Virus record (IMG/VR): IMGVR_UViG_3300026224_000024
DNA: 14,163 nt
Source of the DNA: a virus
Taxonomy: Duplodnaviria > Heunggongvirae > Uroviricota > Caudoviricetes
Strand: one strand, 5' to 3'
The translations under genes and the position numbers were made by a program. The notes beneath the pieces are model-generated. The model did no database searches and was not told the DNA's origin. It worked only from the letters and a program-made list of their open reading frames with translations. The number at the start of each line of letters is the position of its first letter. Within the stretch, counting starts at the first letter, position 1. Positions 5,634 to 12,611 of the stretch are shown here, in pieces.

Positions 5634-5892
5634 GAATCAACTCCTGTGCATTTTGTGTGTTAGCCTTACATCCAACAGGTAAACCATCGGTCGGATTCGG
5701 GTAGATATCAGGCCGGAGTTCATGAGGTGTAACCTCGAAATTCGTAGCCTCTGCGATACGCAATACCTTTTCAGGGCTTAACTGACTACGTCCAGTAGCA
5801 ACGAGGCTAATCATTGATTGCGAACAACCAGCCAGCGCGGCCAAACAAGACTGTCGTACACGATTTTTTTTCAAATATTCATCTAATGTCAT
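5617..5892 (-). CDS. ydaS: YdaS-like Cro/HTH protein
   Basis: HTH-like segment QSCLAALAGCSQSMISLVATG. I prefer the ATG at 5892 (SD AAGGTGA, 6-nt spacer) over the first ATG at 5931, which has no SD. Divergent from racR. Confidence 0.7.
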   Translation of the reverse strand: MTLDEYLKKNRVRQSCLAALAGCSQSMISLVATGRSQLSPEKVLRIAEATNFEVTPHELRPDIYPNPTDGLPVGCKANTQNAQELIHENQA

Positions 5893-5996
5893 AAGGGTCA
5901 CCTTAGTAATATTCGCCAAAATATTAACCATACTAATTTAAATGATCAATACTTATATCAGTTTGAGATTATGAGCTGTGTTCATAAGATGGTGGT
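5893..5996. promoter_or_regulatory. Divergent racR / ydaS-ydaT control region with palindrome TAATATT-N6-AATATTA (5907-5926)
   Basis: 104-bp AT-rich intergenic region between divergent start codons. The palindrome is read directly. The TAATATT motif recurs at 6626-6632 upstream of ydaG. Confidence 0.5.
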
Positions 5997-6461
5997 ATGA
6001 GAAGAAAACGCGAAGAAATCGCATCGCCAGAAGCTACGCAGCGTCTACGCGGAATATGGGATGCAAAAAAAAGAGAGCTCAAATTGACTCAGGAGCTTGC
6101 TGCCGAGCTAATGGGCTTTGAGACGCAATCTACGGTTAGCCACTATCTCAACGGAAAGGCTCCACTTAACACTGATGCGGCATTAAAATTCGCAGTATTG
6201 CTAAGAGTTAAGCCTGAAGACTTGAGGCCTGATTTAGCTGATCTGATGAATTACGTCCGTTCATCTGGAACTTATGACGAAAGTTTCGAAGGCGAAGGGT
6301 GGCGGATGGTTAACAAGCAACAAGCTGATTTACTGGATCTTTTTGATATCCTCCCCGAATCAGAAAAAGCAAAACTAATCGAAAGGCTTAAAGGCCAGAA
6401 TGAACTCTACAAAGAAGCGTTTGAAAATATGCTGGCAGCTCAGAAACGCATGAAGAAATAG
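5997..6461 (+). CDS. racR: RacR-like XRE-family HTH repressor
   Basis: 154 aa with an N-terminal HTH (LTQELAAELMGFETQSTVSHYLNG) and a C-terminal coiled/dimerisation-like region. Divergent from ydaS-ydaT, as in Rac. Confidence 0.8.
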   Translation: MRRKREEIASPEATQRLRGIWDAKKRELKLTQELAAELMGFETQSTVSHYLNGKAPLNTDAALKFAVLLRVKPEDLRPDLADLMNYVRSSGTYDESFEGEGWRMVNKQQADLLDLFDILPESEKAKLIERLKGQNELYKEAFENMLAAQKRMKK

Positions 6462-6480
6462 CCCCCACTACCTCGTAACT

Positions 6481-6505
6481 AAACCGCCATCCCTGGCGGT
6501 TTTTT
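6481..6505 (+). terminator. Rho-independent terminator downstream of racR
   Basis: aaCCGCCAtcccTGGCGGtt stem-loop followed directly by a run of seven T residues. Confidence 0.75.
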
Positions 6506-6697
6506 TGTCCCCTGCGCCCCCATCGCCTTACTTTTTTATCAAAAAAAACACTAAAATTTTCATTAGGATAGTACATTTTTATCAACAAAATGCATATTTA
6601 TGTTGATCATCAATATGAATATAACTAATATTATTGCAGAAGCAGCACGGCGCTGTAGGTTTTAGTTCCGCCACCCGGCGTTAAGGGGAGAGATAAG

Positions 6698-6832
6698 ATG
6701 GTGCATTACGAAGTAGTTCAGTATTTGATGGATTGTTGCGGTATCACTTACAACCAGGCTGTGCAGGCTTTACGCAGCAACGACTGGGATCTCTGGCAGG
6801 CAGAAGCCTCTATCCGCAACAACAAAATGTGA
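6698..6832 (+). CDS. ydaG: Small protein, YdaG-like (44 aa)
   Basis: Not in the ORF track (below its size cut-off). AAGGGGAGAG Shine-Dalgarno 7 nt before the ATG. Translates to MVHYEVVQYLMDCCGITYNQAVQALRSNDWDLWQAEASIRNNKM. Size and position match recalled Rac ydaG. Confidence 0.6.
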   Translation: MVHYEVVQYLMDCCGITYNQAVQALRSNDWDLWQAEASIRNNKM

Positions 6833-6842
6833 GGTGCGAAAA

Positions 6843-6995
6843 ATGCAAAAAATCGACCTCGGCAATAACGAATCCCAGGTGTGCGGCGTGTTCCCCAACC
6901 AGGATGGAACGTTCACCGCCATGACTTATACCAAAAGCAAAACATTTAAAACAGAAACAGGCGCACGTCGCTGGCTTGCCAGAAATACTTGCTAA
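6843..6995 (+). CDS. ydaF: Small protein, YdaF-like (50 aa)
   Basis: GAGGTG Shine-Dalgarno before the ATG at 6843. Translates to MQKIDLGNNESQVCGVFPNQDGTFTAMTYTKSKTFKTETGARRWLARNTC. Follows ydaG by 10 nt. Confidence 0.6.
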   Translation: MQKIDLGNNESQVCGVFPNQDGTFTAMTYTKSKTFKTETGARRWLARNTC

Positions 6996-7193
6996 TCCAT
7001 TATTTGGATTAATTCAATATTCTCGCTGTAGGGGTATAGCAGAAACCACCAAAGCCCGGAGGTGGTGAAATAAAACCGGGCACAACACGAAGGCGCATTT
7101 CCGATATCCATAAAGAGTCGGTCTTGTCTGTTAAATTTAAATGGTGGGAGTGCGCCTCCGGTTGTGAATAACAACACTGCTGTGTGTAGTCTT

Positions 7194-7240
7194 GGCGGCA
7201 TCAGTTTTTTCTTGAAGTTCGACTGATGTCCGCCCTTTTT
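7194..7240 (+). terminator. Terminator-like hairpin (GGCGGCATCAG ... CTGATGtCCGCC, then CTTTTT)
   Basis: Imperfect 11-bp stem with one bulge and an ~18-nt loop, followed by a T-run. Read directly; the large loop makes this uncertain. Confidence 0.35.
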
Positions 7241-7241
7241 A

Positions 7242-7396
7242 AAGTGAATTTTGTGATGCGGTGAATGCGGCTAAGCGCACGCGGCACAGTTAAAAGTCAT
7301 GTTAGTCCTTATTGGTTTGGGTGGGAAAGCCGACTGTAATTGTTAACTGGTTGCAGTCACCTGGAGGCACCAGGCACCGCATCACAAAATTCACTT
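7242..7396. repeat. Perfect 22-bp inverted repeat pair (7242-7263 and 7375-7396) bracketing a 111-bp spacer
   Basis: aagtgaattttgtgatgcggtg at 7242-7263 is the exact reverse complement of caccgcatcacaaaattcactt at 7375-7396. The right arm ends 21 nt before the ATG at 7418. Confidence 0.9.
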
Positions 7397-7417
7397 AGTA
7401 ACCAAGAAGGGAATTAT

Positions 7418-7690
7418 ATGCAAGAGATAAGTTTTGAAGTAACAGCAAAAGATGTACAGGTTAAGCCCGATTACAATCAAAAATTATGTATTGAAGTCAA
7501 TGGCGTGAAGTTATCAGACCTGATTGATTCAGTTGAAGATAACGACGCTATTATTGAAATGGTTGGAGCCGAAGAAATAGCAGAATACTTTTCAACAGAG
7601 GGGCGTCTTCATGAGCTTCTGGAAAAATTTTCATATCAGGATATCGCTACATTTCTGGAAATTAATGGTTATAAAGTTACCGAGGAATAA
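7418..7690 (+). CDS. Strongly acidic small protein (90 aa), first gene of the early-left-like operon; function unknown
   Basis: ATG at 7418 preceded by AAGAAGGG. By my count about 21 D/E versus about 7 K/R. The track ORF starts further upstream at 7340, but the ATG at 7418 has the better ribosome-binding site. Confidence 0.65.
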   Translation: MQEISFEVTAKDVQVKPDYNQKLCIEVNGVKLSDLIDSVEDNDAIIEMVGAEEIAEYFSTEGRLHELLEKFSYQDIATFLEINGYKVTEE

Positions 7691-7708
7691 AGTAGCTCAG
7701 GTGGCGTT

Positions 7709-7918
7709 ATGGAACGTAATCATCTAACAGCTATCAGTGCCGCACAGAGTAAATTCGCCATCGCTGTATTTTTACAGGATGAAGAAATGTTTGAGCAGGC
7801 CATTATTCAGTTTGCAATTGCGACCGGGAGTAAAATAAATGAACACTTTGTTCGCTCTTGTCATGACCGTTTTTCTGACATCAGGCGAAACTCAGGATGT
7901 TGTTACCGGAATTTATAA
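7709..7918 (+). CDS. kilR: Kil-like cell-division inhibitor (KilR-like)
   Basis: 69 aa with AGGTGG before the ATG. The segment AISAAQSKFAIAVFLQDEEMFEQAI parallels the recalled lambda Kil motif (AIQTKFTIATFIGDEKMFREAV). Sits between the acidic gene and ydaE. Confidence 0.6.
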   Translation: MERNHLTAISAAQSKFAIAVFLQDEEMFEQAIIQFAIATGSKINEHFVRSCHDRFSDIRRNSGCCYRNL

Positions 7919-8075
7919 CTCCGAATCTGAATGCAAGGCCGCAGCTATTGAGCAAAAAGTAGCTGGTGAATGTTTCCCTGTTGAGAAATTTATCCGGCCT
8001 GTAGATGAAGAAATTCCCGCAGGCCTCACAGGAGAAAATCATGAAAATAAAATGTGGTTACCACCTTTGCAATAA
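7839..8075 (+). CDS. Possible overlapping small protein with a signal-peptide-like N-terminus (78 aa)
   Basis: ATG with a GGGAGT SD. Hydrophobic N-terminus MNTLFALVMTVFLTSG followed by a Cys-containing hydrophilic region. Overlaps the kilR 3' end by 80 nt in another frame and the ydaE start. Confidence 0.3.
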   Translation: MNTLFALVMTVFLTSGETQDVVTGIYNSESECKAAAIEQKVAGECFPVEKFIRPVDEEIPAGLTGENHENKMWLPPLQ

Positions 8076-8205
8076 AGACGTTGAAGAAAGCAAAACCATT
8101 AAAAGACCACTTCATTTCATGCGTGGAGTTATCCCAACGACGGAAATGAAAAAATATTGTAGTGAAAGTTGTGCCGAAAAAGACCAGATGGCACACGAAC
8201 TTTAA
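8041..8205 (+). CDS. ydaE: Small zinc-binding protein, YdaE-like
   Basis: ATG at 8041 with a GGAG SD. 54 aa with Cys/His pairs (C-x4-C ... C-x3-C) typical of a zinc ribbon. Position between kilR and racC, as in Rac. Confidence 0.65.
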   Translation: MKIKCGYHLCNKDVEESKTIKRPLHFMRGVIPTTEMKKYCSESCAEKDQMAHEL

Positions 8206-8279
8206 TTAACTGACTATTCGAAACTGAATTTATGCCAGCAATGGCAGGGATTCGCTCAACCTTAATTAAGGAGAAAAAC

Positions 8280-8555
8280 ATGATTACCAATTATGAAGCC
8301 ACTGTTGTAACTACCGATGACATTGTTCACGAGGTTAATCTGGAAGGAAAGCGTATTGGCTACGTGATTAAAACAGAAAATAAAGAAACCCCATTCACTG
8401 TGGTTGATATCGACGGTCCATCAGGCAACGTAAAAACACTTGATGAAGGTGTCACAAAAATGTGCCTAGTTCACATCGGAAAGAATCTGCCCGCAGAAAA
8501 AAAAGCCGGATTTCTGGCAACTCTGATTGCAATGAAATTAGGCGGTGAAATCTGA
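8280..8555 (+). CDS. racC: RacC-like protein
   Basis: ATG at 8280 with an AAGGAG SD. 91 aa beginning MITNYEATVVTTDD. Immediately upstream of recE, as in Rac. Confidence 0.8.
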   Translation: MITNYEATVVTTDDIVHEVNLEGKRIGYVIKTENKETPFTVVDIDGPSGNVKTLDEGVTKMCLVHIGKNLPAEKKAGFLATLIAMKLGGEI

Positions 8556-8656
8556 AAGAAATAGCCTGCGCCATACGCAGGCTATGAACAGTGTGTATCC
8601 GGCAAGATCATTCACTGAACAAAACGAATTTTAATCTGAGTTGAGGTTAAAAAACA

Positions 8657-11353
8657 ATGAGCACAAAACCACTCTTCCTGTTACGGAAAGCGAAAAAATC
8701 ATCCGGTGAACCTGACGTCGTCCTGTGGGCAAGCGACGATTTTGAATCGACCTGTGCCACTCTGGACTACCTGCTCGTTAAGTCAGGTAAAAAACTGAGC
8801 AGCTATTTTAAACCTGTTGCCACGAATTTTCCTGTCGTTAATGACCTTCCCCCTGAAGGTGAGATCGATTTTACCTGGAGTGAACGCTATCAACTCAGCA
8901 AAGACTCAATGACCTGGGAACTAAAACCGGGAGCAGCGCCAGACGACGTTCACCACCAGGATAATGCTCAAGAAACCAAAGAACTGGCGGGAGGCCAGGA
9001 AGAAAACGCGCAGGCAGACGCCCACGAGGATTGCCAGGATTGCGAAGTCTCTGTAGCCACTTTGCGGTTCACACAGCGTCTTCTGCACATTTTTACGTAT
9101 GCAGCCGGGGATCGGAAATACCTGCATCATGCCACCCGTGAACAACGGAAACACATTACTGCTCTTGAGATGGATCAGGAAAACAGCTATGTCCAGAATC
9201 TGCTGTTGGCCATACGCAGCATGGCAGAACCGACAACTCTGGATAATGCCGCCCTGCTCCGCCTGACTGATGCAATTAAGGCAGTGTTCTCTATCACGAA
9301 AAAACATCAGCCCTATGAATTTAAGAATTTCATTTCAGCCTGGCTGGATACCGAACACATTGATCGCGGTCTTCTGACAAAAGAATGGCGAAAAGGAAAT
9401 CGTGTTTCACGCATCACGCGCACGGCTTCCGGCGCTAATGCTGGCGGCGGGAACCTCACCGATCGCGGCGAAGGTTTCGTTCACGATCTGACGTCACTGG
9501 CGCGCGACGTAGCCACTGGCGTACTAGCTCGTTCAATGGACGTGGACATTTATAACCTTCATCCGGCACACGCTAAACGTGTCGAGGAAATTATCGCTGA
9601 AAATAAACCACCCTTTTCTGTTTTCCGCGACAAATTCATCACCATGCCTGGTGGGCTGGATTATTCCCGCGCCATCGTGGTTGCGTCCGTAAAAGAAGCA
9701 CCAATTGGGATCGAGGTTATCCCCGCACACGTCACTGAATATCTGAACAAAGTACTGACTGAAACTGATCATGCCAACCCTGATCCAGAAATCGTGGATA
9801 TTGCCTGCGGTCGTTCCTCTGCCCCGATGCCGCAGCGTGTAACAGAAGAAGAAAAACAGGATGATGAAGAAAAACTGCAACCATCTTGCGCAATGGCAGA
9901 TGAACAGGCAACGGCTGAAACAGTGGAACCGGATGCAACTGAACATCATCAGGACACGCAGTCGCTGGATGCTCAGTCACAGGTAAATTCTGTTGATGCG
10001 AAATATCAGAAACTGCGGGCAGAACTCCATGAAGCCCGGAAAAACATTCCGCCCAAAAATCCTGTCGATGCAGACAAATTACTGGCTGCCTCTCGCGGAG
10101 AATTTGTTGAAGGGATTAGCGACCCGAATGATCCGAAATGGGTTAAGGGGATCCAGACTCGCGACTCTATATACCAGAATCAGCCAGAAACGGAACAGAA
10201 CGACCAGAAAGCGGAACAGAACGACCCAAATACGCAACAAAACGAGCCAGAAACGAAACAGCCTGAGCCAGTAGTGCAACAACAGGAAACGGAGAAAGTT
10301 TGCACCGCCTGCAGTAAGGCTGGCGGCGGCAACTGTCCTGACTGTGGCGCGGTGATGGGCGACGCAACATACCAGGAAACATTCGGTGAAGAGAATCAGG
10401 TTGAAGCTAAGGAAAAAGATCCGGAGGAAATGGAAGGCGCTGAACATCCGTACAATGAGAATGCTGGCAGCGATCCGCATCGCGATTGCAGTGATGAAAC
10501 TGGCGAAGTCGCAGATCCCGTAATCGTAGAAGACATAGAGCCAGGTATTTATTACGGAATTTCGAATGAGAATTACCACGCGGGTCCCGGTGTCAGTAAG
10601 TCTCAGCTCGATGACATTGCTGATACTCCGGCACTGTATTTGTGGCGTAAAAATGCCCCCGTGGACACTACAAAGACAAAAACGCTCGATTTAGGAACCG
10701 CTTTCCACTGCCGGGTACTTGAACCGGAAGAATTCAGTAACCGCTTTATCGTAGCACCTGAATTTAACCGCCGTACAAACGCCGGAAAAGAAGAAGAGAA
10801 AGCGTTTCTGATGGAATGCGCAAGCACAGGAAAAACGGTTATCACTGCGGAAGAAGGCCGGAAAATTGAACTCATGTATCAAAGCGTTATGGCTTTGCCG
10901 CTGGGGCAATGGCTTGTTGAAAGCGCCGGACACGCTGAATCATCAATTTACTGGGAAGATCCGGAAACAGGAATTTTGTGTCGGTGCCGTCCGGACAAAA
11001 TTATTCCTGAATTTCACTGGATCATGGACGTGAAAACCACAGCGGATATTCAACGATTCAAAACGGCTTATTACGACTACCGCTATCACGTTCAGGATGC
11101 ATTCTACAGTGACGGTTATGAAGCACAGTTTGGTGTGCAGCCAACTTTCGTTTTTCTGGTTGCCAGCACAACTGTTGAATGCGGACGTTATCCGGTTGAG
11201 ATTTTCATGATGGGCGAAGAAGCAAAACTGGCAGGCCAGCAGGAATATCACCGCAATCTGCGGACCCTGGCTGACTGCCTAAATACCGATGAATGGCCAG
11301 CTATTAAGACGTTATCACTGCCCCGCTGGGCTAAGGAGTATGCAAATGACTAA
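8657..11353 (+). CDS. recE: Exonuclease VIII (RecE): long disordered acidic N-terminal region, C-terminal 5'-3' exonuclease domain
   Basis: 898-aa ORF. The C-terminal ~270 aa match recalled RecE nuclease domain sequence. The 3' end overlaps the recT start. The N-terminal region is low-complexity with heptad-like repeats. Confidence 0.9.
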
Positions 11354-12179
11354 GCAACCACCTATCGCAAAAGCCGATCTGCAAAAAACTCAGGGAAACC
11401 GTGCACCAGCAGCAGTTAACGATAAGGATGTGCTGTGCGTGATTAACAGCCCGGCAATGAAAGCGCAACTGGCAGCAGCTCTGCCACGTCACATGACAGC
11501 GGAACGCATGATCCGCATTGCTACAACAGAAATCCGTAAAGTACCGGAACTAAGAAACTGTGACTCGACGAGTTTTATCGGTGCCATCGTACAGTGTTCA
11601 CAGCTCGGACTTGAGCCAGGTAGCGCCCTCGGTCATGCATATCTGCTACCGTTCGGCAACGGAAAAGCAAAAAACGGTAAGAAGAACGTACAGCTGATCA
11701 TCGGTTATCGCGGCATGATCGACCTTGCCCGTCGATCAGGTCAAATCATCAGTCTGTCAGCTCGTGTTGTCCGTGAATGTGATGAATTCAGCTATGAACT
11801 TGGCCTTGATGAAAAACTGGTTCATCGTCCCGGTGAAAACGAAGATGCCCCTATAACCCATGTCTATGCTGTTGCAAAACTGAAAGACGGAGGAGTGCAG
11901 TTTGAAGTCATGACCCGCAAACAAGTAGAAAAAGTTCGCGACACACACAGCAAGGCGGCAAAAAATGCAGCGTCAAAAGGGGCGTCGTCCATCTGGGATG
12001 AACACTTTGAAGACATGGCCAAAAAGACAGTGATACGAAAACTGTTCAAGTATCTGCCGGTATCTATTGAAATCCAGCGTGCAGTATCGATGGATGGAAA
12101 AGAGGTGGAAACAATTAATCCAGACGACATATCGGTTATAGCCGGGGAATACAGTGTAATCGATAATCCAGAAGAATAA
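11346..12179 (+). CDS. recT: RecT single-strand annealing protein
   Basis: ATG at 11346 with an AAGGAG SD. Begins [24 protein letters not shown] and carries conserved RecT blocks ([35 protein letters not shown]). The track ORF starts 19 codons upstream, inside recE. Confidence 0.9.
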
Positions 12180-12223: not shown

Positions 12224-12430
12224 ATGACAAAAACTTTGAGATATGACGATGTTAAACCATGTCCGTTTTGTGGTTGTCCATCAGTAACGGTGAAAGACAT
12301 TTCAGGATATTACCGGGCAAAATGCAACGGATGCGAATCCCGAACTGGCTATGGTGGAAGTGAAAAAGAAGCGCTCGAAAGATGGAATAAACGAACCACT
12401 GAAAATATTAATGGAGGCGTTCATGTATAA
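12224..12430 (+). CDS. ralR: Restriction alleviation protein Lar/RalR (anti type I restriction)
   Basis: Start chosen at the ATG 12224; begins MTKTLRYDDVKPCPFCGCPSVTVKDISGYYRAKCNGCESRTGYGGSEKEALERWNKR with a CxxC ... CxxC zinc ribbon. Matches recalled Rac Lar. Confidence 0.8.
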   Translation: MTKTLRYDDVKPCPFCGCPSVTVKDISGYYRAKCNGCESRTGYGGSEKEALERWNKRTTENINGGVHV

Positions 12431-12611
12431 AATTACCGCTACAATTGAAAAGGAAGGTGGCACTCCTACTAACTGGACAAGATATTCAAAATCTAAACTA
12501 ACGAAATCAGAATGCGAAAAAATGCTCTCAGGTAAAAAAGAAGCAGGCGTTTCCAGAGAGCAGAAAGTAAAACTGATAAATTTTAATTGCGAGAAACTTC
12601 AGTCCTCGTGA
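12423..12611 (+). CDS. ydaC: YdaC-like small protein
   Basis: ATG at 12423 with a GGAGG SD, overlapping the ralR 3' end. 62 aa. Position between ralR and xis, as in Rac. Confidence 0.6.
   Translation: MYKITATIEKEGGTPTNWTRYSKSKLTKSECEKMLSGKKEAGVSREQKVKLINFNCEKLQSS

Follow-up and report, generated by a model that had tools for sequence, protein, structure and literature searches.

A small acidic protein family linked to recET in Rac-like prophages of Enterobacterales: a possible RecET helper

The DNA analysed here, referred to as the window, is a stretch of 14,163 nucleotides (IMG/VR virus record IMGVR_UViG_3300026224_000024) from a Rac-like prophage of E. coli. It matches E. coli O139:H1 W13-16 best, with 99.1% identity over positions 6900–8700. 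All genes described below are on the plus strand unless stated otherwise. A gene for an HTH repressor in the RacR position (5997–6461) is followed by a terminator-like hairpin at 6481–6502, and then by ydaG (6698–6832) and ydaF/DUF1391 (6834–6995). The gene of interest, here called X, occupies 7418–7690 and encodes an acidic protein of 90 amino acids. A lambda-type kil gene (7709–7918; Pfam Lambda_Kil, E 8e-8) begins after a gap of 18 nt past the X stop codon, and a DUF1482 gene (7839–8075) comes third; the kil and DUF1482 reading frames overlap by 80 nt in different frames. Next, before recE, are ydaE (8005–8205) and a racC-like gene (8280–8555). The recE gene spans 8657–11353 and its partner recT 11289–12179, the latter being a mechanically called ORF whose start is predicted. 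Beyond recT lie ralR with RalA, then xis and int. The RalA antisense sRNA is found on the minus strand at 12429–12607, as a full-length match to Rfam RF02694 (218 bits) in a region homologous to K-12 ralR/rcbA, and a restriction-alleviation toxin–antitoxin pair (ralR/RalA) is likely to be present in this prophage. This gene order, an early-left-type operon with kil, recE, recT and ralR, bears out an earlier note on this DNA, made from the sequence alone, which had assigned X to an early-left-like operon with kil, recET and lar.

The X reading frame runs from an ATG at 7418 to a TAA at 7688–7690, giving 90 codons, and corresponds to the RefSeq hypothetical protein WP_001156286.1. The good ribosome-binding site that had been reported is a Shine-Dalgarno sequence, AAGAAGGGA, at 7404–7412, 6 nt 5' of the ATG. 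The earlier count of about 21 acidic and about 7 basic residues was correct to the residue (D7 + E14 versus K6 + R1), and the pI check proposed with it gave 4.17, with a computed net charge of about -14 at pH 7 and a mass of 10.3 kDa. X is the most acidic of the 43 window ORFs of at least 60 amino acids, with a net charge of -15.6 per 100 residues; the runner-up has -9.2. A 116-residue extended form starting at a TTG at 7340 was considered and rejected, since the homologues and RefSeq all begin at the equivalent of ATG-7418 with its Shine-Dalgarno sequence. X is a genuine gene rather than a chance ORF: it is annotated in RefSeq, the identical protein is present on 461 contigs, and its homologues keep the length, the hydrophobic columns and the acidity. 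It has no enzyme-like features and catalytic motifs are absent. No mention of WP_001156286 or of KilS, an sRNA discussed below, was found in the literature searched.

Together with kil and the DUF1482 gene, X forms a low-GC cassette of 625 bp (7418–8042) which takes the place of the 222-bp kilR gene of K-12 Rac. X begins at the position where kilR starts in K-12, and homology to K-12 returns at 8043, inside ydaE. The GC content is 39.8% in the cassette and 35.5% in X alone, compared with 45.6% for the window. In K-12 Rac, ydaF and the kilR leader are separated by sieB, which is encoded on the opposite strand; in the window this gene is absent, and the corresponding interval has shrunk from about 550 bp to about 47 bp (6996–7020). 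The expectation that X occupies the place of sieB was thus mistaken, as sieB has been deleted and X heads the cassette that stands in place of kilR. Furthermore, K-12 SieB is basic (net +10) and unrelated to X at the profile level. The description of X as the head of its operon holds in so far as X is the first ORF past a KilS-like terminator, but not in the stricter sense, as ydaG and ydaF come before X, likewise on the plus strand. X is the third ORF past the repressor gene and is not a substitute for sieB. Both X and the kil/DUF1482 part of the cassette were found in 17 of 5426 complete E. coli genomes, the accessions listed for the two being identical. Most of these strains were isolated from pigs, and many bear ETEC names; identity is 99% or higher for every copy. 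The kil gene is named under the match in only two of the 17.

The leader upstream of X (7021–7417) is the kilR leader of K-12, with 94.7% identity overall. The two are near-identical up to about position 7384, whilst the final 33 nt or so, including the Shine-Dalgarno sequence, diverge. A homologue of the K-12 sRNA KilS (b4833) is located at 7144–7240 and ends in a terminator-like hairpin at about 7194–7236, followed by a U-run. Transcription must therefore read through this element to reach X. A second hairpin, of 155 nt (7242–7396), has a perfect stem of 22 bp (7242–7263 paired with 7375–7396) and lies directly 5' of the Shine-Dalgarno sequence; in its K-12 counterpart the second arm is imperfect. 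The leader region 7130–7430 folds with a z-score of -4.9, and the part at 7148–7243 is also conserved 5' of X-family members in Salmonella (loci L002 and L003). The KilS terminator and the 155-nt hairpin may gate the entry of transcription or translation into the kil–recET segment.

X matches PHROG 7311 over its full length (E 8.7e-18; residues 2–90 on profile positions 4–91 of 92). An exhaustive phmmer search of 1.84 billion representative proteins gave just 14 matches at E ≤ 1e-3, all from prophages of Enterobacterales, and nearly all of these are 90–100 amino acids long and align over their entire length. When 5.8 billion proteins were searched with a profile, 38 X-family clusters were recovered, from E. 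coli, Salmonella enterica, Klebsiella oxytoca and Citrobacter braakii, and those with names are all 'hypothetical'. Conservation in related prophages, on which the earlier reading of X had been made to depend, was thus found in E. coli, Salmonella, Klebsiella and Citrobacter. Homologues are 27–52% identical to X of the window and keep its length, and the family retains 27 hydrophobic columns and eight acidic columns (26, 28, 34, 37, 41, 69, 78 and 81), of which 34/37/41 and 78/81 have helical spacing inside predicted helices. All members are acidic (net -4 to -18, pI 4.05–4.93). The family occurs on eleven IMG/VR contigs, several of them 42–55 kb long. No match was obtained by tblastn with three divergent members against 50,697 phage records, by scanning species-representative genomes with the E. 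coli-like subgroup, or by scanning IMG/VR with the subgroup from the type-B prophages described below. The PHROG 7311 family is small, lacks a characterised function and is restricted to Rac-like and lambdoid prophages within Enterobacterales.

Some members depart from the common form. In a Rac-like prophage of Salmonella serovar India (L002, a record carrying a plasmid label), two tandem X paralogues lie head to tail just 5' of kilR (5723–5998 and 6001–6276). A Salmonella lineage (L014 and L015, 6001–6272) carries a frameshifted copy, in which HMM positions 1–52 are in one frame and 52–91 in another; it is present on at least 54 contigs, and represents either a pseudogene that is tolerated or a site of recoding. 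The 90%-identity cluster of the Salmonella member P0008 also includes entries of 63–68 amino acids named 'cell division inhibitor protein', which are probably a clustering artefact arising from adjacent or overlapping gene calls.

Searches for characterised relatives gave little. A Pfam scan of X at E values up to 10 returned a sub-threshold match to DUF5983_N, and none to Gam, Ocr, ArdA or SieB; the ArdA Pfam model likewise matched none of 31 X-family members at E up to 0.01. NCBIfam and PDB sequence searches with X gave no match, nor did the PADLOC models for X or six neighbouring proteins. An AlphaFold2 model built on the alignment of 31 sequences (pLDDT 76.5, pTM 0.42) predicts a beta-hairpin (residues 12–17 and 23–28) and five short helices. 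Fold searches of PDB and BFVD with this model found no match, a negative result weakened by the moderate quality of the model. By hhalign, T7 Ocr, gp5.9 and gp2, lambda Gam, cIII, Ea10, Ral and SieB, HK75 Gp33, Abc2, and K-12 RacC, RcbA and SieB were all rejected as relatives, with probabilities of at most 1.4%; among these, Ocr scored 0.1%, Gam 0.2% and the K-12 and lambda SieB proteins 0.1–0.2%. The comparison is able to discriminate, because K-12 YeeW reached 79% (E 1.6e-5) in the same run. Judged by sequence, X belongs to no characterised family, in agreement with the earlier note, which recognised none, and its sequence family is new with respect to Ocr, ArdA, Gam, gp5.9, Abc2 and SieB.

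The sole remote link found is to YeeW. Its N-terminal domain (DUF5983_N, PF25638) can be aligned with residues 7–50 of X. Whilst the window protein scores 19.7 bits against a gathering cut-off of 27, 18 of the 31 family members match PF25638 at E ≤ 0.01 (best 3.8e-6), and hhalign of the family against K-12 YeeW gives a probability of 77–79% (E 2e-5). X is therefore probably a distant relative of DUF5983_N. Like X, the YeeW/DUF5983 proteins, which accompany cbtA–cbeA in CP4-44-type islands, are acidic, belong to enterobacterial mobile elements and adjoin a cell-division toxin, being encoded directly 3' of the cytoskeleton toxin gene cbtA (PMC10790755; bioRxiv 10.64898/2026.06.09.728211). By contrast, X lacks the C-terminal DUF5983 domain (PF19419 matched neither X nor any of the 31 family members), and it is found in the company of RecET and kil instead of cbtA, which was not noted in the gene listings of the X-family loci examined. 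A literature search on YeeW gave unrelated papers only. The link offers no mechanism for X, since DUF5983 has no known function.

Genomic context was surveyed in a census which combined an HMM of the X family with reference sets for RecE, RecT, Kil, KilR, YdaE and other proteins, and which drew its loci from RefSeq, PLSDB, NCBI, Logan and IMG/VR. RecE and RecT are encoded on the same strand as X in all script-scanned family loci with enough flanking DNA, either within about 1.3 kb on its 3' side or flanking it. Gene calls for L029 and L030, which were outside the script scan, agree with this linkage. The generalisation that X always lies beside RecET fails in one locus, L028, which has YdfE and Sipho_Gp157 instead. 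There the X-family domain is C-terminal in a protein of 221 amino acids (6001–6666) with a 120-residue N-terminal extension, encoded by the first ORF past a cI-like repressor gene; the early operon includes KilR, and the recombination slot (7842–10672) is filled by YdfE_N/YdfE_C (757 amino acids) and Sipho_Gp157.

Loci of the Rac-like type are arranged as X–(kil or kilR)–ydaE–(about 100–280 aa)–recE–recT. Meanwhile, type-B prophages of E. coli and Salmonella, which adjoin guaA, have the order recE'–X–recT, where recE' encodes 273 amino acids comprising the nuclease domain only. ATGA stop/start overlaps are found at both X junctions in these prophages (L009, 5183–7160; also L010, L012 and L013). 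In Klebsiella, Citrobacter and related prophages (L006, L007, L008, L011 and L029), X is part of one long same-strand array, in contrast to the divergent Rac layout, with the order ydaS–ydaT–dnaT–DUF4942–antiterminator (PF03589), small ORFs, X and recE–recT. X is located 5' of KilR in Salmonella and Klebsiella with gaps of 2–5 nt (L002, L003 and L006), and KilR is also found in L014, L015 and L027. A second generalisation, that X always lies beside kil, was rejected after blastp, a KilR HMM and Pfam had been applied to the Kil-less loci: close relatives of X occur without any Kil or KilR in L007, L008, L011, L024–26, L029 and all type-B loci. One and the same E. coli cassette occurs 5' of differing RecE and RecT alleles, in which RecT is 79–99% identical to that of K-12 or is of another type. 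No Gam or Abc2 Pfam domain was detected in the early operons of the X-bearing prophages examined.

How might such a protein act? The functional evidence on X is guilt by association throughout, all of it positional. Proceeding by analogy, we tentatively favour the possibility, itself far from assured, that X assists RecET by binding a protein, most likely by inhibiting, as Gam does, a host nuclease that acts on dsDNA ends. A helper role is suggested by the near-invariant linkage to RecE and RecT, by the recE'–X–recT order of the type-B prophages, by the lack of Gam and Abc2 domains noted above, and by a precedent in Burkholderia. There, RecET-like operons contain small hypothetical ORFs ('h' and 'e'), one of them between recE and recT, and efficient recombineering in the native host depends on these ORFs (PMC8313284). 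Compared by description only, they resemble X in being short, uncharacterised and inside RecET operons, although the lineage they belong to differs at the phylum level. A binding role is the default for X because it is short, soluble and acidic and has no catalytic motifs.

Gam-type inhibitors of RecBCD act through binding, without catalysis. The choice of RecBCD as a target is prompted by gene position, since the inhibitor genes of lambda, HK75 and T7 are similarly placed beside kil and/or exonuclease and annealase genes. In lambda the order is kil–gam–bet–exo, with gam between kil and bet; in HK75 it is kil–gp33–erf; and in T7 gene 5.9 overlaps the exonuclease gene 6. HK75 Gp33 has been proposed as a new RecBCD inhibitor, since it triggers P2 OLD (bioRxiv 10.64898/2026.07.10.737580). 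A pattern of this kind accounts for the adjacency of X to both kil and RecET. The reading is also supported by composition, because Gam, gp5.9 and Gp33 are small, acidic early-operon proteins (net -8 each), as is X, with its charge of -14 and eight conserved acidic columns. The occurrence of one cassette with differing RecE and RecT alleles favours a host-directed target over a partner specific to RecE or RecT. Against the Gam-like reading, comparisons of sequence, profile and fold link X neither to Gam, gp5.9, Gp33 or Abc2 nor to any solved structure, and Pfam Gam does not match it; what it shares with the class of RecBCD inhibitors is size, charge and genomic placement only. Even the placement differs in detail: X lies 5' of kil instead of between kil and the annealase gene, type-B prophages being the exception. 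In lambda and HK75 the position directly 5' of kil belongs to cIII, which in lambda is a basic peptide of 54 residues with no similarity to X. X is also missing from most Rac-like prophages, K-12 Rac included, and so is dispensable for RecET as such, and the range of net charge within its family (-4 to -18) is loose for a strict DNA mimic. Further points against are the L028 relative, the moderate AlphaFold2 model and the fact that small acidic proteins are common in such operons.

On the Gam-like reading, X would be a cytoplasmic acidic protein of 10 kDa, made together with the products of kil, recE, recT and ralR from the early operon that the repressor controls, 3' of the KilS-type terminator and leader. 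It would act after prophage induction as a stoichiometric protein-binding factor serving the RecET module. Its target would most likely be RecBCD, the host dsDNA-end nuclease, whose inhibition would protect the substrates of RecET; X would then be the counterpart in RecET phages of Gam, gp5.9 or Gp33, with the conserved acidic surface perhaps serving as a decoy. Protein binding, RecBCD as the target and mimicry by the acidic surface are each inferred in this scheme. In the broad sense of the term, which includes inhibition of RecBCD, an anti-defence role is the leading guess for X, again by analogy.

Among the alternatives, the one which survives best, though on balance improbable, is that X binds some other protein, outside recombination, restriction and division, for example one concerned with transcription or the nucleoid, or that it travels in the cassette as a near-neutral passenger. 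Many of the small acidic proteins that phages make early act on varied targets in the host (T7 gp2, net -5, is one such protein), and X is rare in E. coli, as the count of 17 genomes indicates. The spread of the frameshifted Salmonella copy implies that loss is tolerated. The status of a passenger is however hard to reconcile with a length, hydrophobic core and set of acidic columns that have been kept down to 27% identity across four genera, beside RecET.

It is also conceivable, but unlikely, that X serves the phage recombinases themselves as an accessory subunit or a regulator, such as an adaptor, chaperone or timing factor which binds RecE or RecT. The linkage to RecE and RecT in all scanned loci would be expected of such a protein, the stop/start overlaps of type-B prophages are typical for proteins made in a fixed ratio, and the Burkholderia 'h' proteins boost recombination in their native host only (PMC8313284). 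On the other hand, the identical cassette accompanies clearly different RecE and RecT alleles, which argues against a co-evolved physical partner, and the L028 relative has no RecET nearby. Most RecET prophages also lack X. Nor does X have homology to any part of RecE: the idea that it is a detached piece of the long acidic RecE N-terminus was rejected, as the family HMM matched no RecE ORF.

The earlier note had proposed instead a DNA mimic of the Ocr or ArdA kind, which would block restriction–modification or another DNA-binding defence. X does resemble these proteins in its low pI and in its early expression in a mobile element, and its acidity is both strong and conserved. Furthermore, the operon already contains the restriction-alleviation gene ralR with the sRNA RalA, and the rare, low-GC cassette has the look of an add-on 'moron', typical counter-defence cargo. 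Beyond charge, however, nothing in the Pfam, PDB, BFVD or hhalign comparisons described above points to Ocr or ArdA. X is far less acidic than Ocr (-14 over 90 residues versus -28 over 117), and Ocr and ArdA are elongated helical mimics, whilst X is predicted to combine a beta-hairpin with short helices and has RecET as its genomic partner. This context points to the recombination module and away from evasion of restriction. Acidity alone is weak evidence, because lambda Ea10, a small pL-operon protein unrelated to X, has the same net charge of -14 and because charge within the X family varies from -4 to -18. Mimicry of this kind is accordingly considered quite improbable, and the earlier interpretation as a whole is partly supported.

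Least probable of all is a role in modulating cell-division toxins, by which X would tune, chaperone or neutralise Kil-type inhibitors of FtsZ or share their target: X does lie directly 5' of two unrelated families of FtsZ inhibitor, lambda-type Kil and KilR, and its N-terminal half is remotely homologous to a family adjoining a third cytoskeleton toxin, CbtA (PMC10790755), but close relatives keep X without Kil or KilR, K-12 KilR and lambda Kil function without X, and adjacency to kil is equally a feature of Gam-type genes. A related and similarly remote prospect, based on the fact that the domain adjoins three unrelated inhibitors of FtsZ or MreB, is that X and YeeW share an N-terminal module which is a dedicated partner of prophage cytoskeleton toxins, in which case X might be a hitherto unrecognised regulator or co-factor of phage-induced division arrest, and neither a DNA mimic nor a recombination factor.

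As it stands, X is an uncharacterised accessory gene of a kind common in prophage early operons. RecET recombineering currently borrows lambda Gam as its inhibitor; if X proved to be an inhibitor of RecBCD-type nucleases, it would supply the missing third component of RecET systems. Its family would then also be a new group of inhibitors with no relation to Gam, gp5.9 and Abc2, and X would be likely to trigger guard systems which sense RecBCD inhibition, such as P2 OLD and retron Ec48. If X acts instead on RecE/RecT or on Kil, it would be a new accessory of two much-used phage modules. The family is small, and the gene is readily cloned (273 bp) and suited to standard E. coli genetics. The recE–X–recT arrangement leads to a sharp hypothesis of practical use in recombineering and in the study of defence systems that guard RecBCD.
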